DNA of 64,000 bases from Nitrospirota bacterium (GTDB lineage: Bacteria; Nitrospirota; Thermodesulfovibrionia; Thermodesulfovibrionales; Dissulfurispiraceae), in contig CAWBMP010000003.1 in NCBI GenBank assembly GCA_963790025.1, positions 212,799-276,798 of the forward strand, given 5' to 3'. The number at the start of each line of letters is the position of its first letter. Position 1 is the first letter of the stretch. The notes under the pieces are model-generated. The model had not been told where the DNA came from. It saw nothing but the letters and a program-made list of their open reading frames with translations, and made no database searches. Positions 31,220-42,945 of this stretch are shown piece by piece. The position numbers and the translations under genes are program-made.

Positions 31220-31945
31220 TTACGCGGTCAGCATTTCAAGAGAAATAAGCTCCAACGCCTTTTCCGGGTCCTCCTGCTTTAGTATACCCCTGCCCATTAC
31301 AATGTAGTCTGCTCCGTCCCGCAGCGCCTGTCTGGGGGTTGCCGTCCTCTTCTGATCGTCAGGAGGGACCCAGGACGGTCTGATACCAGGGGTAACTACA
31401 AGAAAATCCTTTCCGCATTGGCGTTTTATCATACCGATTTCATGGGGCGAGGCGACAACGCCGTCAAGACCCGCGTCAAATGCAAGCAGGGCCAGGTTTT
31501 TTACGTGGGTTTTAAGACTGTAATGGATCCCCAGTTCACTCTTAAGGATTTCGGTATCAAGGCTTGTGAGGGCTGTTACACCTATAATCCTTGGTCTCTG
31601 GATGTTTTCCTTCATGCACAACTCGCCAACTGCATCCCTGCACTGCTTCATCATAGCAAGTCCGCCGGAGGCATGAACATTGAACATATACACACCGAGT
31701 CTCACGGCGGCCAGAGCAGCCCTTGTAACAGTATTGGGTATGTCATGGAACTTTAGATCTAGGAAAACCTTCTTGCCTTTTTTCTGTATCTCCCCGACAA
31801 TACCGGGACCTGCAGTGACAAAGAGCTCAAAGCCGACTTTGAATACCGCTGCCTGGTCGCCGAGCCTGTCAACAATATCGAGTGCCTTCCCGGGATCGGA
31901 TACATCGAGTGCCACAATGAGCTTATTTTTCCAGGAGAGTTGCAT
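31220..31945 (-). CDS. pyrF: Orotidine-5'-phosphate decarboxylase
   Basis: LIVALD, FLDLKFHDIPNT, VTPGIR, DDQKR. Confidence 0.97.
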   Translation of the reverse strand: MQLSWKNKLIVALDVSDPGKALDIVDRLGDQAAVFKVGFELFVTAGPGIVGEIQKKGKKVFLDLKFHDIPNTVTRAALAAVRLGVYMFNVHASGGLAMMKQCRDAVGELCMKENIQRPRIIGVTALTSLDTEILKSELGIHYSLKTHVKNLALLAFDAGLDGVVASPHEIGMIKRQCGKDFLVVTPGIRPSWVPPDDQKRTATPRQALRDGADYIVMGRGILKQEDPEKALELISLEMLTA

Positions 31946-32493
31946 TATAATTTCGGTAATGTAATCCCGGTCTGCGCCTGATATTTCCCGGACTTATCCT
32001 TGTATGATGTCCTGCAAACTTCCGCCGCCTGTAAAAAAATCAGCTGTGCAATGCCTTCATTTGCATAAATCTTTGCCGGGAGCGGTGTTGTATTGGATAT
32101 CTCGATCGTGACATACCCCTCCCATTCAGGCTCCAGGGGGGTGACATTGACTACAACACCGCACCGAGCATAGGTTGATTTGCCTAGACATATCACCAGC
32201 ACATCCCTTGGGATTTTGAAATACTCCAGGGAGCTGGCCAGAGCAAAAGAATTCGGCGGCACAATACATACGTCGCCTTTGAAATCGACAAAACTTCTCG
32301 GATCAAATTCTTTGGGGTCTATAACTGTCGAATTAATATTGGTAAAAATCTTGAACTCATCGCCGGTCCGCATATCGTATCCGTAAGAGCTGACGCCGTA
32401 GGAGATGACACCTTCTCTGACCTGAATTTCATGAAACGGTTCAATCATGCCGCGCTGCGCCATATCATGAATCCATCTGTCGTTTTTGACCAT
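31945..32493 (-). CDS. dcd: dCTP deaminase
   Basis: [36 protein letters not shown]. Confidence 0.97.
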
Positions 32494-32561
32494 TTAAGCT
32501 ATTCCTTCCCCGTCAATGTAAGTTATAAAATAGCACAGGGACACAGCGACAAGCAAACATA

Positions 32562-32588
32562 TAAGGAAGGGACCGGCAGGGGCAGGCT
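32562..32588 (+). repeat. Left 27-bp terminal inverted repeat of the cobalamin module
   Basis: TAAGGAAGGGACCGGCAGGGGCAGGCT, exact reverse complement of 39929-39955. Confidence 0.9.
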
Positions 32589-32738
32589 CTTTCTCTGCGC
32601 GCTAAAACTACTTCAGTTGCCATCACTATATTTTCAAATTGCGTTATTCGTGCACATTCTCGGCTGGGGCTCGGCTCACTCACCCGTTCGCGTCCGCAAA
32701 AAATCAAAGATTGTTTTGCGGACCAGTGCTGGCCCCTG

Positions 32739-32939
32739 TCACAGTACACCCGTGCTATCGCTCCGATAAAGAGTCTGCCCCTGAGAGGAAAAGGAGAAGC
32801 TTTTGACCTCAAATGGATAGGAGTAACCCAATAGATCGGCATCATAGGCAGGGCCTTGGTCAACAGCCTGGACCTTCCAAGCAGACAAAAGTAGCAGTCC
32901 CAAGATTATTAAAAAAAGCAGATCGGTATGCTTCTTCAT
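32739..32939 (-). pseudogene. Truncated N-terminus of a secreted alpha/beta hydrolase-like gene
   Basis: MKKHTDLL...AVDQGPAYDADLLGYSYPFEVKSFSFSSQGQTLY, then an abrupt switch into palindromic sequence and stop. Confidence 0.55.
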
Positions 32940-33222
32940 GGAAAGCCTCCCGGATAAGGCGAGGTAATCGCCTAACATTATTTTTTTGCTGTATGCGGTC
33001 TTTTTGATGAATTATAGGGGCGAAGAAGGAGAGTGTCAAGGGTTCAAGTTACTTCCTGTAAGCCTCGACAGTTGCAATTTTCTGAATATGTTTATTTCGC
33101 TAGAAACTATCAAAAAAAGGTATCGCCTGATCCTACTTATACTGGACTGTTTAGGATTCACGCAACTGCACGACAGTTACGACCAGAATTAGTAGCCCGT
33201 CAACACTCGATTCAATACCAAG

Positions 33223-33252
33223 TTGACAAGAGTTCCACTTAAATAGTATAAA
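33223..33252 (+). promoter_or_regulatory. Sigma-70-type promoter for the riboswitch transcript
   Basis: TTGACA-N18-TATAAA immediately upstream of the riboswitch. Confidence 0.6.
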
Positions 33253-33258
33253 AGATAA

Positions 33259-33427
33259 TCTCAAGGTGCCGTAAGGATTAATAGGGAATCCCGTGAGGCG
33301 GAAACGCTGATTCGGGAGCGGGCCCGCCGCTGTAACCGGGGACGAAAGCCGACTGAGCCACTGGAGTTAAACTCTGGGAAGGCCGGCAAGTAGGGCGATC
33401 CGGGAGCCAGAAGACCTGCCTGTGAGA
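33259..33427 (+). ncRNA. Cobalamin riboswitch
   Basis: AGGTGC...TTAATAGGGAA...CCCGCCGCTGTA...GCCACTG...TGGGAAGG...AGCCAGAAGACCTGCC, upstream of B12 uptake genes. Confidence 0.95.
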
Positions 33428-33564
33428 CTCAGTGATATGTTGCTGGTGACGGGACGTTCTTACAGGCAATGCCATAGAATACCTCCCTTTTTCCACTCAA
33501 CATTTCACCCATTACCACTCCTTGCCGTGGCTGGAAGGAAAGAGGATGAAGTAAATCAGGGTGC

Positions 33565-33599
33565 AATCCTCAGGGCATTTTTGCCTTGGGGATTTTTTT
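33565..33599 (+). terminator. Leader terminator downstream of the riboswitch
   Basis: AATCCTCAGGGCA-TTTT-TGCCTTGGGGATT followed by T-tract. Confidence 0.7.
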
Positions 33600-33764
33600 A
33601 TTTTCAGGAGAAAGAGAAAATGAAACAATTACACAATGCTGCTTCACTATTGCCGCTCACCTCTCTTTTTTTACTGTCATTTGGTTTGCTTATTGCGCAA
33701 CTCCGGGACGATAGTGGACTGATCTTGCGATAATTTTTAAGGGTTATACATAAGGAGGTATAAC

Positions 33765-34589
33765 ATGAAGAAGTTAATTGTATCCTTAATGCTTTTTTTA
33801 TTAATCCCCGTAATGGCTCGGGCGGTGGATATCCCCCTGCCTCTCGGCCTCAATGCAACGGCATACGTCATCAAGGCAGAGCGGGACGGCTTGTGGGAAA
33901 AGACTCTGATTGTTCGCTTTCCCGAACAGCGCCGGACTCTTACCACCACTGATGGTTTCGTTGACGCAATGGCTGCCATAAATCACGCTGCCGATCCGTT
34001 GTTATGGGAAAAGCTAAGTAAGGAGTGCACGACGACAGAAAGTTGTAGCGGGAAGGAGTATGTCATGAAGGTTCAGGAAAAGATCGCAAAAGATTTCGGA
34101 CTGAAAAGCACGGAACTGGCGCAGATGGCAACAGCTGCTGATATGGATAACCTTGCAGTCGTCACAAAAGAGTATAAGCCGTTTATTGTTACCGCACTAG
34201 TTACCGCAGGAGCGAAAACGAATGCCATCAGAACCGGCGTTGACGAGGGCAAGAATATTGAGGTAGCGGAGCCGCACGGCACTGTGAATATCATGATCTT
34301 GACCAATGCGCGTCTCACCGATGGGGCTATGGCGCGGGCGATAGTTACTGTAACCGAGGCCAAGACGGCCGCCTTTGAGGATTTGAAGGTTCCTAGCAGT
34401 TACACCAAAACAGTCCAGGCGACTGGAACCGGCACGGACAGCGTCATTGTCGTTTCGGGAACTGCAGGCCCGAAGGCAACCTACACGGGTGGACACAGTC
34501 GGATCGGCGAACTGATCGGCAAAGCGGTTTATGAGGCCGTGGTCGAGGCGCTGGGTAAACAGAACGGATTCAAAAAAGCGGACAGGTGA
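33765..34589 (+). CDS. cbiZ: Adenosylcobinamide amidohydrolase family protein with signal peptide
   Basis: MATAADM, VTAG, GTVNI, VTVTEAKTAA, ATGTGTD; riboswitch context. Confidence 0.85.
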   Translation: MKKLIVSLMLFLLIPVMARAVDIPLPLGLNATAYVIKAERDGLWEKTLIVRFPEQRRTLTTTDGFVDAMAAINHAADPLLWEKLSKECTTTESCSGKEYVMKVQEKIAKDFGLKSTELAQMATAADMDNLAVVTKEYKPFIVTALVTAGAKTNAIRTGVDEGKNIEVAEPHGTVNIMILTNARLTDGAMARAIVTVTEAKTAAFEDLKVPSSYTKTVQATGTGTDSVIVVSGTAGPKATYTGGHSRIGELIGKAVYEAVVEALGKQNGFKKADR

Positions 34590-34752
34590 CTAGATGATGA
34601 ATGTCCTGAAATTATTGTTGTTCAAAGGAAAACGGCGTAGGAATAAGATGTGTGTTTATACTGGTGCCACTACTTAGACTATATCGGAATATGATTTATT
34701 GTTACGCTTTATATGCGCAAGCTATTAAATGTGATTTAATTGCGGGAGACAG

Positions 34753-35586
34753 GTGAAAAAATATAGTGTTCTGCTTGTTTTGCTTTTTAGTCTTAACTCC
34801 TTTCTGTTGACAAATGCTGCAGCCGAAAGTCCAAAACGAATCATTTTGCTCGCACCTAGTATAACGGAGATACTATTCGCCCTGGGGCTGGGCAACAATA
34901 TAGTTGGAGTCTCCAGTTTCTCTGATTATCCTCCAGAGGCAAAAAAGAAGCCGACGGTCGGTGGCATGTCGAACCCTTCGATAGAGGCAGTGATCTCATT
35001 GAAACCCGATATAGTCATCATGGCGCTTGACGGTAACCCGAAAGAATTCGAAGAGAGGCTCCGCTCCCTCAAGATAAAAACCTATGTGTTCAGGGCAAAG
35101 CGGATTTCTGAATTGCCACAAGGTATCAGGGACCTTGGAGCCGCCCTTGGACAAAAAGAAAGAGCGGAGGCGCTGGCGGAGCATATTGAGACAGACATGA
35201 GGGCGATAAGTGTCAAAAGAGGAAACACAAAAAAAAGAAAGATCCTGTTTATTGTTTGGCCCGAACCTCTGATTGTTGCAGGCCCCGGCAGTATAGCGGA
35301 TGATGCGATCACTATCCTAGGCGGACAAAACATCGCAAAGGAAGCAAAGATTGCTTACCCAAAGTTTTCGATAGAAGAAGTCATCAGGAGATCTCCGGAT
35401 GTCATATTCATCGGCAAGGGAGCTGGAATGATGGAAAGACTATCGCAGGGTCTTCTTGAAAAGCTGAATAAGGTCCCGGCTGTGAGAGACAAAAGGGTTT
35501 ATTACGTCGATGATTACCTCTACAGGCTCGGCCCCAGGACCGTAAAGGGAGTCGAGGAACTGGCGCGATACCTGGAGGCACGATGA
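34753..35586 (+). CDS. btuF: Cobalamin ABC transporter substrate-binding protein
   Basis: RIILLAPSITEILFALG, VGVSSFSDYP, LYRLGPR. Confidence 0.9.
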   Translation: MKKYSVLLVLLFSLNSFLLTNAAAESPKRIILLAPSITEILFALGLGNNIVGVSSFSDYPPEAKKKPTVGGMSNPSIEAVISLKPDIVIMALDGNPKEFEERLRSLKIKTYVFRAKRISELPQGIRDLGAALGQKERAEALAEHIETDMRAISVKRGNTKKRKILFIVWPEPLIVAGPGSIADDAITILGGQNIAKEAKIAYPKFSIEEVIRRSPDVIFIGKGAGMMERLSQGLLEKLNKVPAVRDKRVYYVDDYLYRLGPRTVKGVEELARYLEAR

Positions 35587-36545
35587 AGGCGAGGATGGCA
35601 ATTATTGTATTAGTTGCTGTGACTATCTTCTGTCTCTCCGTTGTCGTCGGCCCGCATATTATAAACCCCTTTGCATTGGATGAGATCTCGAAAGAGATTC
35701 TTTTTTCTATCCGAGTGCCGAGAAGCATCGTTGCTGTGCTCATGGGCATGGCGCTCGGTGCGTCTGGTGCGGTACTCCAGGGTATGCTAAGGAATCCGCT
35801 GGCTGACCCGTACGTACTTGGTATCTCCGGCGGAGCGTCCCTAGCAGCCGCATGTGGCATAATTGGGGGATTTTCTTTTCTTGGAACTTTCACTGTACCT
35901 GTACTTTCATTTGGGGGTGCGGTTGTTACTGGAGGAATGGTCGGAATAATAGGCTGGAAGAGAGGAGGTCTTTGGCCTGAGAGACTCCTCCTTGCCGGAG
36001 TTGGCCTCAGTTTCCTTTTTTCCGCTCTTCTCATGCTTCTCATGAGTCTTTCGAGCGATGATGGGCTTAGAAAGGCAATGCTCTGGATTTTCGGAGATCT
36101 CTCAATGTCTGATTGGTCAAAGATGCCTTTTGGCTGTTTCTTTATCGCAATCGGGATTGTGGTCGCAACAATACGCGCAAAAGCTTTGAATGCGCTGATT
36201 CTCGGTGATGAATTTGCACACAGCCTCGGCTTCGCACCGCACCGTGAGAGGGCCTTGCTCTTTGTCTCGGTTGCCCTCATGACTGCTGCATCCGTCTCTC
36301 TTGGCGGCATGATAGGATTTATCGGCCTGCTCGTCCCTCATATTGTGAGGAGCTTTGTAGGCTCTGATAGCAGGCTGCTCATACCTGCGTCTGCTTTTGG
36401 CGGCGGGGCACTTCTCTGTATCGCAGACGTGATCAGTCGGACGATCATGCCTCCCATGGAACTGCCTGCCGGTGTCGTGACGGCAATAATCGGAGCGCCC
36501 TATTTCCTTTACCTGCTTGGAGGTAAGAATGTCCTTACTCGCTAA
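35583..36545 (+). CDS. btuC: Cobalamin ABC transporter permease (FecCD)
   Basis: RNPLADPYVLGISGGA, IGFIGLLVPH, GAPYF. Confidence 0.9.
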   Translation: MKARMAIIVLVAVTIFCLSVVVGPHIINPFALDEISKEILFSIRVPRSIVAVLMGMALGASGAVLQGMLRNPLADPYVLGISGGASLAAACGIIGGFSFLGTFTVPVLSFGGAVVTGGMVGIIGWKRGGLWPERLLLAGVGLSFLFSALLMLLMSLSSDDGLRKAMLWIFGDLSMSDWSKMPFGCFFIAIGIVVATIRAKALNALILGDEFAHSLGFAPHRERALLFVSVALMTAASVSLGGMIGFIGLLVPHIVRSFVGSDSRLLIPASAFGGGALLCIADVISRTIMPPMELPAGVVTAIIGAPYFLYLLGGKNVLTR

Positions 36546-37305
36546 CCCCACGATACTCGAAGCGAAAGGAATAAGTTTCTCTTATGGGAAAGATTCCGAA
36601 TTTATTGAAAACCTATCATTTACTTTAGGAGAAGGAGAATTCATCGGACTTCTTGGTGCAAACGGCTCCGGCAAATCGACAATTCTCAAGCTCGGTACCG
36701 GTATACTGAAGCCTCAGTCAGGCGAACTCAGACTCTGGGGGAAGCCTTTTAGTTCTTACAAAGACCGAGACAGGGCGAAACTCATCAGCTACCTTCCGCA
36801 GGCGCTCGATCTCAGTATCCCATTTAGAATCAGGGAACTCGTAGGCATGGGACTTTATCCCTATGACATCCCTCCTTTGATAAGCATCGACTATGCGCTG
36901 GATATGGTCGGTCTAGGCAACAGGGGAGACTCCTATCTTTCCGATCTGAGCGGCGGAGAAAGAAGGCGGGCTTTTATAGCGATGACCCTTTTACAAGGAG
37001 CAGGGTTACTCCTTCTTGACGAGCCGCTTGCAAATCTGGACATAAAGTATCAGATAGAACTGATCAGACTCCTAATGAGGCTGAGGGACGAGAGGAACAT
37101 ATCGGTCGTCATGGCATTGCACGATATCAATATTGCGATGAGATTTGAGAAAGTAATGGTAATCAAAAGCGGTATGGTGCTCGGCTTCGGCAGCCCAGAC
37201 TCGGTGCTGACCGTACCGGTTATTAATGAGGCCTTTGGCGTGTTGGGCAAAATTAAAAACGCAGGTAAAAGAGAGGCCTACATAAGTTTCGAGGAGAATT
37301 ATTAG
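36529..37305 (+). CDS. btuD: Cobalamin ABC transporter ATPase
   Basis: GANGSGKST, LSGGE, LLLDEP, LHDIN; ATG 36529 after GGAGG. Confidence 0.9.
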   Translation: MSLLANPTILEAKGISFSYGKDSEFIENLSFTLGEGEFIGLLGANGSGKSTILKLGTGILKPQSGELRLWGKPFSSYKDRDRAKLISYLPQALDLSIPFRIRELVGMGLYPYDIPPLISIDYALDMVGLGNRGDSYLSDLSGGERRRAFIAMTLLQGAGLLLLDEPLANLDIKYQIELIRLLMRLRDERNISVVMALHDINIAMRFEKVMVIKSGMVLGFGSPDSVLTVPVINEAFGVLGKIKNAGKREAYISFEENY

Positions 37306-37468
37306 ATATGGTGGAGCTTGCTGTACTCAAGAGTAAGGTGCAGCAATTCGCGCTATATGTCGGCGTTCCTTCATTTCTAATGCATCCGGATAACAGAAAT
37401 GCTTTTGCTATACACTTGCGAACAAATGTTTTACGAATAAAAGAAATATTTAGAATGGAGGCCATTTT

Positions 37469-39448
37469 ATGAGACATGGATGGATACTATTATTCGTACT
37501 GGTTATACTCCTATCACTATGGCAGGAAGTCAAGGCAGAAGAAGTTGCCACACTTCAAGAAGTGGTTGTCACAGCCACAAGATATGATGAAAATACGGCC
37601 GATATCCCCGCCAACGTTTCGATCATAACAGAAAAAGACATTAAGGAGTCGAATGCTCAGAATATCCCCGATCTCCTGAGGAATCAGGTCGGAGTTCTGG
37701 TAAACGATATCACTGGAAGCGGGAGGTTCTACACGGTAGATCTTCGCGGTTTTGGCGAAACGGCCCCACTGAACACTCTGGTGCTTGTAGACGGCAGACG
37801 TATAAACCAGGCTGATCTAAGCGGAGTGGACTGGATGCTTATTCCACTGGAAGATGTAGAAAGGATCGAGATTGTTCGTGGCGCCCAAGGTAGTGTTCTT
37901 TATGGGGATAACGCTGCGGGCGGGGTCATCAACATCATCACTAAAGCAGGACTTGGCGGATTGAAAGCCGGGGCTAATCTAGCAGGAGGCAGCTATGGAA
38001 CCTTCAAGGCTGGTTCGTATGTTTCCGGGAATCTGAAGGACCTATCGCTGCGACTGTCAGGGAATTATCTTACATCCGACGGCTACAGGGACAACAGCAA
38101 AACCGACCATAAAGACACTGATTTTCATACTACCTATTCTGTTAAGGATTTCTTGAAGATAGACTTCAGCGGCGGATATCACTGGGACAATACGGGGCTT
38201 CCCGGGGCACTGACAGATAGTGATTTCGCAGCGGGATTTTCGAGAAAAGCTTCCCAATTCCCAAATGATTTTGCGAAGACTAGTGATTACTATCTTCGGC
38301 TTGTGCCAGAGTTGTATTTTTATGGTAGCGACATTTTCCGACTCGACGCATCTTTCAGAAGAAGGGATGCGCTTTCATTCAGTTCCGGAGACTGGGGGAA
38401 TTTCACAGGAGACAGTGTGATTAAGACTGCTAACGTTTCTCCTCAGGTCATTATAAAAAATACTTTAGGCTCTATGAAAAACAGCGTGACGGCGGGCATT
38501 GACTATCAAAGCGTAGACGAAAACGTCGTTGATGATTCAATCTTCTTCGGGTCGGAATCACTCGGGACCTTCAAGCTGACAGAGGATACTGTGGGGGGGT
38601 ACGTTCACGACGAGCTTGCCATCATCGATGGGTTGATCTTTTCCTCAGGATATAGGCATGAGATTGCGAACTACAGCTTCAACCCCAGCACACCTAGCAA
38701 TATCTCCATGTCGACAGACTCATATTCAGCAGGCATCAATTATACATACTCCAAGCAGTCCTATGTCTATGGAAGTTACTCAAAAAGTTTCAGGTTTCCG
38801 GTTCTTGACGAACTCTATAGCTACATTACCAATACGATAAATACCAACCTTCTCTCTCAGACAGCCGATAATTACGAGATCGGCATCAAACATTCTTTCA
38901 GCGATATATTCTCCGCACATTTAAATGTTTTCAAAATAGTTACAGATCGGGAGATTATTTACAATCCGGTGCTCTACGAGAATGAAAACCTGGATGGTAT
39001 CACTCACAGGGAAGGTGCAGAAATATCCTTTGAATCTAAAGCCACTAATTGGCTTGCGGTAAGGGGCGGATATACATTCTTGAGAGCTAAGATTGCAGGG
39101 GGCATGTTTGATGGAAGCAATGTTCCCAATGTCCCGATGCACAAGGCAACTATGGATTTGGTATGCCATGTCACAAAACAAGCGGACGCAATACTCAATG
39201 GAGTCTATATAGGGGAAAGGCCTTTTATCAGCGACTGGTCAAATAGCTTCAGTAATCAGGACGCGTATGTTCTTTTGAATGCAAAGTTCAATTATCGGTG
39301 GAAGTCTGTCAAGGCGTTTCTGAATATCAATAATCTGACAAACAAAAAATATTCTGAATACGGTGTCATAGGCGGGGTGCCTCTACAAAGGGCTTATTAT
39401 CCATCACCAACTAGGAATTTTCTGCTGGGTCTTTCTTTTGATCTCTAA
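37469..39448 (+). CDS. btuB: TonB-dependent receptor (BtuB-like)
   Basis: TonB box EVVVTATR, LVLVDG, VERIEIVRG..SVLYG.NA.GGVINIIT, NNLTNKKY. Confidence 0.85.
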   Translation: MRHGWILLFVLVILLSLWQEVKAEEVATLQEVVVTATRYDENTADIPANVSIITEKDIKESNAQNIPDLLRNQVGVLVNDITGSGRFYTVDLRGFGETAPLNTLVLVDGRRINQADLSGVDWMLIPLEDVERIEIVRGAQGSVLYGDNAAGGVINIITKAGLGGLKAGANLAGGSYGTFKAGSYVSGNLKDLSLRLSGNYLTSDGYRDNSKTDHKDTDFHTTYSVKDFLKIDFSGGYHWDNTGLPGALTDSDFAAGFSRKASQFPNDFAKTSDYYLRLVPELYFYGSDIFRLDASFRRRDALSFSSGDWGNFTGDSVIKTANVSPQVIIKNTLGSMKNSVTAGIDYQSVDENVVDDSIFFGSESLGTFKLTEDTVGGYVHDELAIIDGLIFSSGYRHEIANYSFNPSTPSNISMSTDSYSAGINYTYSKQSYVYGSYSKSFRFPVLDELYSYITNTINTNLLSQTADNYEIGIKHSFSDIFSAHLNVFKIVTDREIIYNPVLYENENLDGITHREGAEISFESKATNWLAVRGGYTFLRAKIAGGMFDGSNVPNVPMHKATMDLVCHVTKQADAILNGVYIGERPFISDWSNSFSNQDAYVLLNAKFNYRWKSVKAFLNINNLTNKKYSEYGVIGGVPLQRAYYPSPTRNFLLGLSFDL

Positions 39449-39928
39449 AAAAAGGGCAGGTTATTAACAGGAGGTTAATTATGTGCTGGAAAATGCCTTT
39501 GGCTTCTAATCTGGTTGTAATTCAGAACAACGGTAAATTCTGCCCATTTGCGCTGAAAGAGGATGTACCTGAAGGGACTGTCCCCGAGTTTTGGGACTCC
39601 AGTCAGCGGTTTGTTCCGCATGTTTGGGTAAAGAGACCCAGCTTCAATTAATCCTAACTTGTTTCCCGGCATGCCTTTCGACAGCGTTCATTTCCAGTCG
39701 AACTGTCGAGAAAGTTGCGCCTTTCTGAAACTATCGATTGGTCGGTGAAACGAAGGACCGGAAAAAGTCGCCTTTCTCGCTTAATTCTTGGTTTTATCGA
39801 GAACCTACCTCTGAGAAATCTCGGTTGAAAGTGGGTGTGACAATCGTTGAGGCTGACCTTTCGACTTTTTGTGAGCATCCGTGCGTTTCAGAAGAGTACA
39901 GGGTGCTCCCCTCTTTCTGCTATTGATT

Positions 39929-39955
39929 AGCCTGCCCCTGCCGGTCCCTTCCTTA
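39929..39955 (-). repeat. Right 27-bp terminal inverted repeat of the cobalamin module; overlaps the hypF stop codon
   Basis: AGCCTGCCCCTGCCGGTCCCTTCCTTA. Confidence 0.9.
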
Positions 39956-42352
39956 ATCAGACAGCGGCAGCCCCGCCTTCAGCCTCTCTCTTAGCAGGAA
40001 CGCCTGCCCCAAAGATATGCATGCGTCATTACAGGGCACATTAATATTTGTCAGCACATTGAACCCCTGCGACACTAGCCTGTCATAAGTTCTCTCCAAT
40101 ATATAGGAGTTCTGAAAAACACCGCCGCTCAAAGCCACATTCCTGATTCCGCATTCACCGCTGATACGCGCAACAACTGTCGCAATGACTTCAATCACAG
40201 TATTATGAAATCTGGCAGCTATCCGACCTTTTAATTCTCCTCGTTTTATGTCTTCAATTATCTGAAGGACAGTCTTGGAGAAATCGATACTTGAAGGCCC
40301 TTCACCCTCCACAGTAAAGGGATAACTGTCAGAAACACCTTCTTCAATCTCATTTTCCAGCGCTATGGCTGCTTCACCTTCAAAAGTATTCCTGTCACTG
40401 ACACCTGCAAGCGCCGATACCGCATCAAAAAGTCTGCCGGCGCCTGATGATAGCGGCGAAAAGTTCCGGTTGCCGGTCAGCTTAACAATGGCATCGAGCC
40501 GCTGCAGCCCGTATCTATCGATGAAACCGATATCATTGAGAGATTCCATAACAGCAGCTTTAAGGGTTACAGGGTCGTTCAGACAGCGGCCAAATGCCGT
40601 GACAATCGCGCCGATTGCGCTTCTCCAGCATTGCTTGATTGCCATTTCTCCTCCCGGCAAGGGAATATAGCCGAAATGCGCAGCCCTCACAAAACCATCT
40701 TTACCGCATAAAAGGAATTCTCCGCCCCAGAGATTCCCGTCCGTCCCATATCCCGTTCCGTCCAGTGCAATACCAATGACCCTCTCTTTGAGGCCGCTTT
40801 CAGCAAGTATAGCTGCTATATGAGCATAGTGGTGCTGCACGGCATATCCCTTAATTTTTTGCCGCCTCATTTGCTCCAACGCCCATTGTGACGACAAATA
40901 ACCCGGGTGCAGGTCATAGGCAACGGCAACAGGTTGCGACCGGTATACCTGCTTCAGGTTTGTAAGGGTCTCCTCAAAGAAACGCAGCGTTTCGAGGTTT
41001 TCCATATCGCCTATATGCTGGCTTGTTACTGCGTAATTGCCTTTCGTCAGAGTAAAACTGTTCTTTACATCAGCCCCGCATCCGAGCACATCCGGGCCTT
41101 CTTCTTCAAGCAAAACGGGTTGGGGGGCATATCCCCTGGAGCGGCGGATAAAAAAGAATGCAGGACGCCTATAGCCTGCCTTTATCACCGAATCGTCGAC
41201 TCTCATAAAGATGCCTCTGTTATGGAAAAGAAATGCGTCGGCAATGCCGGAAAGCTTGTCCAAGGCTTCGTTGTTATCGATAACGATAGGTTCCTCCGAA
41301 ATGTTTCCGCTCGTCATCACTAATGCGTCAAAGTGAGGAGAAAAAATAGGAGCTGTCCCTATTTTTTCTACAGGCTGATAAAACAAAAGATAGTGAAGCG
41401 GGGTATAGGGCAGCATAAACCCGATATATTTATTTTTCGGTGCAACGCCCCCCGAAAGCCCTTCAGCTGATGTTTCCTGCCTCACGTCCTTTTTTTTCAG
41501 AAGTACTATTGGCCTTCTCATGTCCTTCAACAGCACTTCTTCCTCTTTGGACATTTCGCAGAATTTACGGATAGCAGTGCAGTCGGGGGCCATTAAGGCG
41601 AAAGGTTTGTTGCTCTTCCTCTTTTTATCTCTAAGCAATGCGACTGCCTGTTCATTCGATGCATCGCAGCAGAGATGGAAACCCCCGAGTCCCTTGACCG
41701 CTACAATTGCTCCTTGCCTCAGGAGAGCAATCGTTCCTGATATCGGATTCCCGGCCCTGGCGGCCGCTATATCCACGAACTGCGGATTGCTTACTGTAAG
41801 AGATACCTGTGGTCCGCATATCGGGCAGGCATTAGGCTGGGCATGAAACCTGCGATTCGCGGGGTCATTGTACTCGCTCAGGCATTGAGGGCACATCTTG
41901 AATTCCGCCATAGTCGTATTAGGCCGGTCATACGGCACTCTTTGGGTGATAGAATATCTCGGACCGCAATTTGTGCAGTTGATGAACGGATACAGATGGC
42001 GCCTGTCAAGCGGGTCGAACAATTCTTTCAGGCATGCGTCGCATACGGAGACATCGGGAGAAACGAGTGTGAAACCGCCTCCATCAACGCTGCTGATAAT
42101 GACGAAATCATCGTAGCCTTTTGCCGGGAGTTCCTGAACATCGATACTGTCGATCTTTGACAGCGGTGGTTGCAGTCGCTGAAGGGCATCTATAAATTCA
42201 GCGCTGTTGCAGCCTTCAGCCTCAATCACAACCCCGCCTGACGTATTTTTTATATATCCCTTGATGCCCAAATCTTTTGCTAGATTAAAAACAAAGGGCC
42301 TGAAGCCCACGCCCTGGACGATGCCTTTAACGGATAGAAGGAAACACTTCAT
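39953..42352 (-). CDS. hypF: Hydrogenase maturation carbamoyltransferase HypF
   Basis: GIVQGVGFRPF, CXXC zinc fingers, RRFHAQP, KGLGGFHL, QHHYAH, DGTGYG. Confidence 0.97.
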   Translation of the reverse strand: MKCFLLSVKGIVQGVGFRPFVFNLAKDLGIKGYIKNTSGGVVIEAEGCNSAEFIDALQRLQPPLSKIDSIDVQELPAKGYDDFVIISSVDGGGFTLVSPDVSVCDACLKELFDPLDRRHLYPFINCTNCGPRYSITQRVPYDRPNTTMAEFKMCPQCLSEYNDPANRRFHAQPNACPICGPQVSLTVSNPQFVDIAAARAGNPISGTIALLRQGAIVAVKGLGGFHLCCDASNEQAVALLRDKKRKSNKPFALMAPDCTAIRKFCEMSKEEEVLLKDMRRPIVLLKKKDVRQETSAEGLSGGVAPKNKYIGFMLPYTPLHYLLFYQPVEKIGTAPIFSPHFDALVMTSGNISEEPIVIDNNEALDKLSGIADAFLFHNRGIFMRVDDSVIKAGYRRPAFFFIRRSRGYAPQPVLLEEEGPDVLGCGADVKNSFTLTKGNYAVTSQHIGDMENLETLRFFEETLTNLKQVYRSQPVAVAYDLHPGYLSSQWALEQMRRQKIKGYAVQHHYAHIAAILAESGLKERVIGIALDGTGYGTDGNLWGGEFLLCGKDGFVRAAHFGYIPLPGGEMAIKQCWRSAIGAIVTAFGRCLNDPVTLKAAVMESLNDIGFIDRYGLQRLDAIVKLTGNRNFSPLSSGAGRLFDAVSALAGVSDRNTFEGEAAIALENEIEEGVSDSYPFTVEGEGPSSIDFSKTVLQIIEDIKRGELKGRIAARFHNTVIEVIATVVARISGECGIRNVALSGGVFQNSYILERTYDRLVSQGFNVLTNINVPCNDACISLGQAFLLRERLKAGLPLSD

Positions 42353-42945
42353 CAAATAAATAATTTCATTTGGCGGACAGGTGCGTAGGTCCTGCGGTGA
42401 ATCAGACAGGGGCCATGTTTGTGTAACGCTTCCATGTGCTCCCTTGTGAAATATCCTTTGTGTACATCAAAGCCATACTCCGGATATAGCCGATGGTATT
42501 CAAGCATCGCATGGTCCCTCGCAACTTTTGCAAGTATTGAGGCCGCACTTATTGCGGGGACTCTGTCGTCACCCTTTACAATCGCCTCTATCGGGATATC
42601 AAGAATGGGAGCATGGTTCCCATCAACCAAGACCTTTTGAGGCCTGATCTCCAAACCTTCCACAGCACGTTTCATGGCAAGGAGGGTGGCATGAAGAACA
42701 TTAAGTCTTTCGATTTCTTCCAGACTGGCCTTGCTTATGCACCAGCTCAGTGCGTAAAGCTTTATTTCTTCACTCAGTGCCTCGCGCCTGCCGGCTGTCA
42801 ATTTCTTTGAATCGGCAAGTCCTTCAATGGGACGATCCGGATTCAGGATCACCGCGCCGACATAGACTTCGGCTGCCCCGGATCCACGCCCCGCCTCGTC
42901 TACTCCTGCTATCCTAACCGCCGCATCAACGGCATAAGGATCCAT
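42352..42945 (-). CDS. rnhB: Ribonuclease HII
   Basis: AGVDEAGRG, DSKKL, VDGN, KGD, SAASILAKVARD, HKGY. Confidence 0.95.
   Translation of the reverse strand: MDPYAVDAAVRIAGVDEAGRGSGAAEVYVGAVILNPDRPIEGLADSKKLTAGRREALSEEIKLYALSWCISKASLEEIERLNVLHATLLAMKRAVEGLEIRPQKVLVDGNHAPILDIPIEAIVKGDDRVPAISAASILAKVARDHAMLEYHRLYPEYGFDVHKGYFTREHMEALHKHGPCLIHRRTYAPVRQMKLFI

Follow-up and report, generated by a model that had tools for sequence, protein, structure and literature searches.

The 64,000-nt window analysed here (assembly GCA_963790025.1, contig CAWBMP010000003.1, positions 212,799 to 276,798) comes from a Nitrospirota bacterium of the Dissulfurispiraceae and carries a vitamin B12 operon framed by two short inverted repeats. 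The 27-mer TAAGGAAGGGACCGGCAGGGGCAGGCT lies at 32562-32588 on the plus strand and its exact reverse complement at 39929-39955 (27/27 identical); both face outward, with a TA at each outer end, and they bound a segment of 7,394 bp in which a cobalamin riboswitch and the genes cbiZ-btuFCD-btuB are all on the plus strand. The neighbouring genes are on the minus strand (trpE, pyrF and dcd to the left; hypF, rnhB and trmD to the right), and the hypF open reading frame (ORF; 39953-42355) takes its TAA stop codon from the final 3 nt of the right 27-mer. An earlier, sequence-only reading had described this layout, from the perfect repeats and the borrowed stop codon to the antisense operon and the missing transposase, and each of these features was recovered. 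With up to three mismatches allowed, the 27-mer had two matches in the window and none in each of 100 shuffled windows. The segment (32562-39955) is overlapped by 38 ORFs with a length of 50 aa or more; a Pfam scan of all of them returned family matches for the five operon genes only, and no transposase or recombinase. The GC content of the segment did not differ from that of its flanks. Where the sequence-only reading saw a cargo element mobilised in trans, we give an even chance to a different origin, namely that a single resident MITE (miniature inverted-repeat transposable element) was split when patchwork DNA of ~7.15 kb entered it by illegitimate recombination.

The segment is a genuine insert, and the junction that holds it is variable. 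We compared the genome of the window (G000) with the nine other genomes of its genus (G001-G009; ten same-genus genomes in all). The sequence-only reading had called for a search for an empty hypF-dcd site, and near-empty sites in two of these relatives establish the insertion: in G007 the homology breaks off after 32560 and is taken up again at 39955, only 6 nt standing in place of 32561-39954, and in G009 ~90 bp separate the dcd start from the hypF stop. The motif AAAATA(G/A)CA.AG upstream of dcd was kept in all same-genus loci read, with divergence beginning ~20-30 nt beyond it, and the carboxy terminus of HypF (...LPLSD*) is the same here as in G007, G005 and G009, the three genomes whose empty sites gave no clean reconstruction around a single TA. 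Unrelated material occupies the junction elsewhere: a 390-bp filler in G005, a chemoreceptor gene in G006, two GGDEF/EAL genes in G008, isoamylase, TauE and aldolase genes in G002 and 12 kb of sugar-phosphate genes in G004, the gene cargo of the last four being unrelated and 2.5-12 kb long. The junction of G001 and G003 is split over separate contigs with other neighbours. No repeat was found at the junction in the scanned loci of G002 and G004-G008, the stretches of G001, G003 and G009 having been read only. Each same-genus genome read has a different hypF-dcd junction, and no repeat, tRNA or integrase accounts for the fast turnover.

The 27-mer belongs to a dispersed hairpin repeat, here called A to distinguish it from a second, related repeat (B). 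Alignment of window positions 32562-32783 with six copies from G005 and one from G006 defined a non-coding element of ~236 bp (~190 bp in G008) with terminal inverted repeats of ~40 nt (arms of ~28-40 nt), the 27-mer being their outer part; the assignment of the ends to a MITE in the sequence-only reading therefore stands. The left copy in the window is the sole near-full A element of G000 (nhmmer score 211) and has no Rfam or Pfam match; the other copies are fragments. In G000 the 27-mer occurs five times at up to three mismatches (two forward, three reverse) and 11 times at up to seven, compared with once for the reversed control. We searched its 26-nt core at up to three mismatches in 41 genomes, the ten of the genus and 31 of other genera, and recovered five copies in G000, 1-31 copies in each of eight of the nine other same-genus genomes and none for the controls. 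G008 holds 31 core copies, 5 of them exact (the 27-mer is also exact in five places fetched from this genome), and G006 holds 12, with none in G009 and none in the 31 genomes of other genera. Among the 41 genomes searched, the A-type repeat is thus confined to the source genus. A metagenome scan with the exact 26-mer returned four loci, all ordinary repeat copies, and no ORF lies between arm pairs in the G008 or the metagenome loci. The sequence-only reading would have been refuted by a high-copy 27-mer dispersed in random orientation together with relatives carrying the B12 genes at this site without it; the repeat is indeed dispersed in both orientations, but the relatives do not have the B12 genes at this site.

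The two arms of an A element resemble each other more than they resemble the arms of other copies, differing on average by 1.06 of 28 nt within and 3.06 between elements in the 17 two-armed elements compared, where private variants occur in both arms. Solitary arms are common: in G008, 14 of 20 arm occurrences lacked an A-type partner arm in the fetched flanks, and single or truncated arms abut unrelated DNA. A is often fused with B, which has arms of the form CAGGAGAAGGGGAGCAC, in a double hairpin of the structure TAAGGAAGG-A-AAT..AATAG-B-CCTTCCTTA, and most complete A copies, by eye, pair a AAGGAAGG-type end with an AAT-type one. A TA precedes (A/T)GGAAGG at 17 of 25 other heads (the A-type outer arm ends, counted by eye) and may be part of the element. 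No target duplication accompanies the copies L026 and L039, and the comparisons of filled with empty A-element sites, strongly diverged as they are, did not reveal a clear one.

No cognate insertion sequence (IS) with A-type ends was present in the DNA examined, which did not include an exhaustive scan of the relatives' whole genomes, and DDE_3 was absent from G000, G007 and G008. We rejected the IS630-type genes of G005 and G006 as candidates for this role; their ends are unrelated, and the position of one of them 39 bp from a MITE copy is coincidental. The Y1_Tnp-like genes of G000 (11 matches) were likewise rejected, with no A arm within 1.5 kb. These matches include near-identical groups of ~300 codons (four copies of one type, three of another), and the genes are multi-copy and IS200-like or RAYT-like, with long carboxy-terminal extensions. 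A separate case is that of the A copies L040 (G008, C2:422600-424000) and L102 (metagenome), in both of which one and the same sequence, GAGGCTGTAGGAAAAGTCC..., interrupts the element at an identical internal position; the ORF that it opens resembles, by eye, a transposase amino terminus, and the sequence may be an IS that targets the repeat centre.

The A repeats of G000 cluster at C4:189274/190080 and C4:326185/327511-327682. The single arms at C4:189274-189300 and C4:190080-190106, 806 bp apart, end exactly after 27 nt and are followed by T-runs, so that position 27 of the arm may be a preferred breakpoint or the limit of a module. At C4:326185-327730 (L097) the stop codon of bioB is overlapped by a single A arm of 61 nt; between this arm and a full but degenerate A element, whose arm variants are different, lie bioB and an acylphosphatase gene. 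Repeat pieces here frame a second block of genes.

The sequence-only reading had reported gene debris in both inner margins of the B12 segment, which holds for the left margin and not for the right, where we found repeat fragments and no recognizable gene debris. On the left, a chimeric ORF matches residues 1-70 of a 353-aa alpha/beta-hydrolase of G012 (59/70 identical, 84%; BLASTP). The hydrolase is full-length in G012, G003 and G004, and tblastn recovered neither a full-length nor any other copy in G000. Three-way comparison with these orthologues showed that the window switches from MITE to hydrolase at the 12-nt sequence AGTCTGCCCCTG, where the native hydrolase gene holds AGAGTCTGCCCCTG, resembling ACAGCCTGCCCCTG of the MITE right arm. 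Because the 12-nt overlap is native to the hydrolase gene, of which the window retains residues 1-70 of 353 only, the left junction is a microhomology fusion, pointing to illegitimate recombination into MITE DNA. AGTCTGCCCCTG also forms a direct repeat (11/12 identical) with 39929-39940, and the cargo (32784-39928) lies between the two. Rfam gave no match on the left margin. The hydrolase fragment has kept a candidate promoter that is now directed, across the MITE, at dcd-pyrF-trpE and may have replaced read-through from hypF. No donor locus with the hydrolase beside the operon was found; in G003 the hydrolase gene lies ~3.6 kb from an orthologue of the TonB receptor, in the other orientation.

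The right inner margin contains a dispersed repeat of ~85 nt (39667-39750), with blastn copies at C5:23514, C5:1997 and C2:704676, on C1 of G008 (93%) and in G004 (86%). Rfam returned a single chance-level match on this margin (E 0.72) and none for the ~85-nt repeat. Next to the right 27-mer is a fragment of a B-type repeat, whose sequence AATCAATAGCAG is also found in a standard A-B unit of G008. In G008 and G005, AAT..AATAG-B adjoins the opposite A arm at its outer end (five places with the exact pattern, one with the same AATCAATAG), and the succession of arm and then AATAG at the right end of the segment is unique among the ten same-genus genomes. A recurrent element type made of an arm plus B was rejected on this account, and an inversion between repeats was rejected as the source of the odd junction because a crossover inside the repeats keeps the inner neighbours of the arms inner. 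The junction is bridged by a 438-nt contig identical over 39608-40045, from one, possibly that of the source sample, of four public sequencing runs that were searched as assembled contigs, a form in which rare variants are dropped.

The segment between these margins is, by its gene families, an ordinary corrinoid import and remodelling unit. Riboswitch-controlled btuB-btuFCD-cbiZ operons for corrinoid salvage are known from comparative genomics of B12 regulons and of CbiZ, and the operon of the window has the same parts in one direction: a cobalamin riboswitch leader (the sole Rfam match at gathering level in the 64-kb window), CbiZ, an importer of the BtuF/BtuC/BtuD type and a TonB-dependent receptor. 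As far as sequence tells, there is no functional difference from such operons. All Pfam families of the operon score above their cut-offs, and the NCBIfam equivalog cut-offs for BtuF, BtuC, BtuD and TonB-B12 are not reached, so the corrinoid specificity of the transporters is predicted from families and context. BtuB would move corrinoids over the outer membrane and BtuFCD over the inner membrane, CbiZ would cleave adenosylcobinamide, and B12 would probably shut the operon off through the riboswitch and the terminator at 33565-33594. The coordinates of all features are given in Table 1.

Table 1. Features of the B12 segment and its flanks (window coordinates).
Feature	Position	Strand	Basis and remarks
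dcd (dCTP deaminase), first native gene on the left	31945..32493	-	PF22769 DCD, 120.5 bits; 79-86% nucleotide identity to same-genus genomes
Native spacer upstream of dcd	32494..32561	.	Conserved with G007 up to 32560; blastn, 32022-32560 against L016 1-556
Near-complete A-type hairpin MITE-like element	32562..32783	+	Positions 1-222 of the ~236-nt reference, last 15 nt missing; alignments to L024, L025 and L026
Left 27-mer, outer arm (head) of the A-type repeat	32562..32588	+	Equals family consensus
Chimeric 79-codon ORF	32739..32978	-	Codons 1-70, 5' end of an alpha/beta-hydrolase gene; last 9 codons and stop from the MITE; BLASTP
12-nt microhomology junction AGTCTGCCCCTG	32772..32783	.	Common to MITE right arm and native hydrolase gene; comparison with G012, G003 and G004 orthologues
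Candidate sigma-70-like promoter of hydrolase fragment	33011..33039	-	TTGACA-17-TATAAT, 12/12, pattern match only
Operon core common to relatives, leader/riboswitch to btuB stop	33205..39450	+	Homology edges
Cobalamin riboswitch aptamer	33247..33438	+	RF00174, 109.7 bits (gathering 31.5), full model 1-189
Terminator-like hairpin, putative expression platform of the riboswitch	33565..33594	+	Terminator scan
cbiZ (adenosylcobinamide amidohydrolase)	33765..34589	+	PF01955, 174 bits
btuF-like periplasmic binding protein	34753..35586	+	PF01497 (Peripla_BP_2), 123 bits; best NCBIfam BtuF, 141 bits (cut-off 234)
btuC-like permease	35583..36545	+	PF01032 (FecCD), 291 bits; best NCBIfam BtuC, 237 bits (cut-off 461)
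btuD-like ABC ATPase	36517..37305	+	PF00005 (ABC_tran), 94 bits
btuB-like TonB-dependent outer-membrane receptor	37469..39448	+	Plug and beta-barrel domains; TonB-B12 second-best NCBIfam, below cut-off
Right inner margin, non-coding, with ~85-nt dispersed repeat	39449..39878	.	No Pfam match
B-type repeat fragment: AATC, then AATAG and ~45 nt of B arm	39879..39928	-	Alignment with G005 and G008 B elements
Right 27-mer, positions 211-236 of the reference MITE	39929..39955	-	Alignment; final 3 nt form the hypF stop
hypF, first native gene on the right	39953..42355	-	Pfam HypF domains

The operon is shared with relatives over its core only. Homology to G006:C2, G008:C2, G012:C22 and G012:C217 begins at 33205-33208 and ends at 39411-39435, and a contig of run X2 departs from the window at 39450. 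The identity to the window is 89-93% in G006:C2 (at the start of the contig), 93% in G008:C2 (at the end of the contig), 89-91% in G012:C22 and 85% in G012:C217; both G012 contigs are short, at 6.3 and 3.9 kb, and mis-binning of them is possible. Identities of the flanking pyrF-dcd and hypF are 72-86% among same-genus genomes and 66-71% with G012. Among the matches listed, the closest BtuB outside the Dissulfurispiraceae is at most 38% identical. The copies of the relatives share 33205-39450 only with the window and are at other loci, where they lack both margins and both arms. In G008, btuB is directly upstream of the orthologue of a TonB-receptor-exbB-exbD-tonB cluster, an order that suggests the ancestral location of the operon; in G000 a further B12 riboswitch, a small Cys-rich protein and CbiM precede this cluster, which is at C3:67.7-71.6 kb. 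The operon is therefore accessory and has changed place or host. The whole of C3:65637-71610 (L096) forms a second cobalamin-riboswitch locus (Cys-rich protein, CbiM, TonB-dependent receptor, ExbB, ExbD and TonB).

From these observations on the repeat family, the insertion, the anatomy of its junctions and its gene content, we infer an order of events and a recombination mechanism. An A element of ~236 bp would have inserted alone between the hypF stop and the dcd promoter, in what was a short spacer. Patchwork chromosomal DNA of ~7.15 kb (the first 70 codons of the hydrolase gene with its promoter, the riboswitch-cbiZ-btuFCD-btuB unit and a tail of repeat debris) would then have integrated 27 nt from the right end of the MITE by illegitimate recombination, with one junction formed at the 12-nt stretch of microhomology common to hydrolase gene and MITE arm. 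Both 27-mers would be the two terminal arms of a single A-type copy, and we propose that they bound the cargo because it landed in the MITE, not because they moved it. The left copy corresponds to positions 1-222 of the element and the right 27-mer to positions 211-236, and removal of the cargo would restore one element with an overlap of no more than 12 nt. We also count in favour of a split MITE the near-empty sites of G007 and G009, the restriction of the relatives' operon copies to 33205-39450 at other loci, the decay of the family in G000, the failure to find a cognate transposase, the likeness of arms within an element and the frequency of single arms in G008. Unrelated DNA without a repeat in G002, G004, G005, G006 and G008 indicates that the junction takes up DNA without the help of a MITE, and the 236-bp element would form most of the permissive spacer. 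The two-event account is the most economical. It explains the exact arms, the coincidence of their outer ends with the limits of the empty site, the lack of a transposase, the truncated gene and the near-perfect complementarity of the MITE pieces.

Several observations weigh against a single split element. A AAGGAAGG-type terminus at both ends, which a split element would need, is a minority form (by eye L026 and L039 of ~13 complete copies), and the AATC-AATAG and B arm inside the right 27-mer are the normal spacer and partner of an A-B unit; the right end could thus be a separate, internally deleted A-B unit arranged head-to-head with the left copy, in which case the fit of positions 222 and 211 would be a coincidence. 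Further, 27 nt is also the exact length at which the single arms at C4:189274 and C4:190080 break off, the identity of the arms is weak proof of common origin because both equal the family consensus, and an unsplit MITE at the hypF-dcd site was seen in no strain. In a reading that we hold to be improbable, two units resided here head-outward, A on the dcd side and A-B on the hypF side, and the cargo integrated between their tails; the first A would have lost its tail, B the greater part of its length, and the second A its interior and inner arm. Two heads do suggest two units, given that most complete copies combine a AAGGAAGG-type with an AAT-type end; AATC-AATAG-B beside an A arm mirrors the standard A-B spacer, and the clusters in G000 show that repeats can lie close together. 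This history, however, requires about four events compared with two, its product (arm, then AATAG) is found nowhere else among the ten same-genus genomes, and it leaves to chance the match between the left truncation (210-222) and the length of the right arm (27 nt, from about position 210), for which uniform breakpoints give a rough estimate of ~5-10%.

The mobilisation in trans favoured by the sequence-only reading would have the operon caught between two repeat heads elsewhere and the 7.4-kb unit moved to the hypF stop by a transposase recognizing TAAGGAAGG...GGCT ends, in the manner of MITE-bounded composites, and we regard it as unlikely. The outer ends of the 27-mers lie within 1-6 nt of the insertion limits set by G007, both are exact consensus arms that face outward as a composite needs, and the right one resembles the head of a standard A-B unit. 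The operon, moreover, is 89-93% identical to its counterparts in G006, G008 and G012, compared with 66-86% for the flanks, which fits recent movement between lineages. These operon copies, however, come without the margins and the arms (with the caveats already given for the G012 contigs), and neither a second copy of the unit nor its inner junctions could be found in the 41 genomes, searched with the whole region, or in the four metagenome 26-mer loci. The pattern of the right junction is confined to the window within the same-genus set, and no IS with such ends emerged from the IS630-type and Y1-like genes examined. The TA at each outer end, read earlier as a possible target duplication, recurs at most other heads, which we count in favour of the loaded unit; it cannot, however, separate the two readings because a MITE inserting alone would leave the same mark, it is perhaps part of the element, and the reconstructed empty site is unclean when set against the relatives. 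As for a composite transposon, the locus has two exact, outward 27-nt arms but one near-complete element. Exact inverted repeats, with enclosed genes and GC skew opposite to the flanks, might also mark an invertible segment in which crossover at the 27-mers flips the operon, hence its antisense orientation. We give this very little credence: the riboswitch, the likely promoter region and all five genes are inside, so that a flip would leave expression unchanged, Pfam detected no recombinase, the skew merely tracks gene orientation and the insertion itself would go unexplained. The contigs of the four runs contained no strand change at the repeats, no hypF-dcd joint and no circle, although contigs cannot show rare forms. 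Returning to the split MITE, the arms of the hairpin repeats could have a more general role in the genus, as landing pads for gene capture with preferred breakpoints in the arms, the operon-loaded element being still movable by some transposase and spreading nutrient-uptake operons in the Dissulfurispiraceae. Such breakpoints would explain the single arms that abut unrelated DNA, the supplied stop codons and the microhomology junction, and the loaded element, with its two intact consensus ends, would be a natural cargo MITE. We offer this extension as a speculation that is doubtful at best.

Bacterial MITEs are miniature, hairpin-forming inverted-repeat elements such as Correia/nemis, ERIC and RUP. 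The A repeat is like them in its size (~190-240 bp), lack of coding capacity, ~40-nt terminal inverted repeats, dispersal in both orientations, variable copy number among sister species (0-31), intergenic position and supply of stop codons (hypF; bioB at C4:326185). It differs in having co-varying arms, A-B double hairpins with TAAGGAAGG/CCTTCCTTA termini and many single arms, and in that no cognate IS or transposase was found and no clear target duplication seen. Apart from a demonstrated target duplication and a cognate transposase, it thus has the descriptive features of a bacterial MITE. Judging from the lack of an Rfam match, the family appears undescribed, the literature not having been searched for it by name or sequence; it is ordinary in kind. 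REPINs, which move with RAYT transposases, also consist of paired inverted arms that form a hairpin. Single arms as decay products and the 11 Y1-like matches in G000 recall that system, but A elements are much longer, their arms are not small palindromes and the multi-copy Y1-like genes have no A arm within 1.5 kb. General information on bacterial MITEs is available in review form (PMC10969869).

Closer to the arrangement at this locus are gene blocks bounded by miniature elements, such as a blaPER-1 integron of Acinetobacter johnsonii with its flanking pair of 439-bp MITEs (PMC3934969) and the TIME-COMPs built from Tn3-derived miniature elements (PMC4133298, PMC13367494). In all of them, as here, kilobases of transposase-free genes lie between outward ends of miniature elements. 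As far as the available text of these papers goes, the known composites have two whole element copies, evidence of mobilisation and a resistance gene as cargo, whereas in the window one near-whole copy is paired with nothing more than a 27-nt arm, one inner junction is a microhomology fusion, neither a second copy nor an informative duplication was found, and the cargo is a housekeeping-type nutrient operon. The segment resembles a MITE-bounded composite but has a single near-complete element copy, and no second unit turned up elsewhere in the genomes searched.

The case shows an accessory nutrient operon interrupting a conserved string of housekeeping genes in an uncultured Nitrospirota lineage, and it documents a two-hairpin MITE family whose arms mark rearrangement breakpoints. 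New here are this family and, at a junction that varies, a clear example of an operon residing within a MITE. For genome annotation, it teaches that perfect inverted repeats around a block of genes need not denote a transposon: gene blocks that have entered a MITE present the same picture. Within the available text of the papers on such composites, the documented cases of MITE-mediated gene mobilisation mainly concern resistance genes of clinical bacteria (PMC3934969, PMC4133298, PMC13367494). If loaded MITEs do move, this form of mobilisation would extend to metabolic operons in environmental bacteria.

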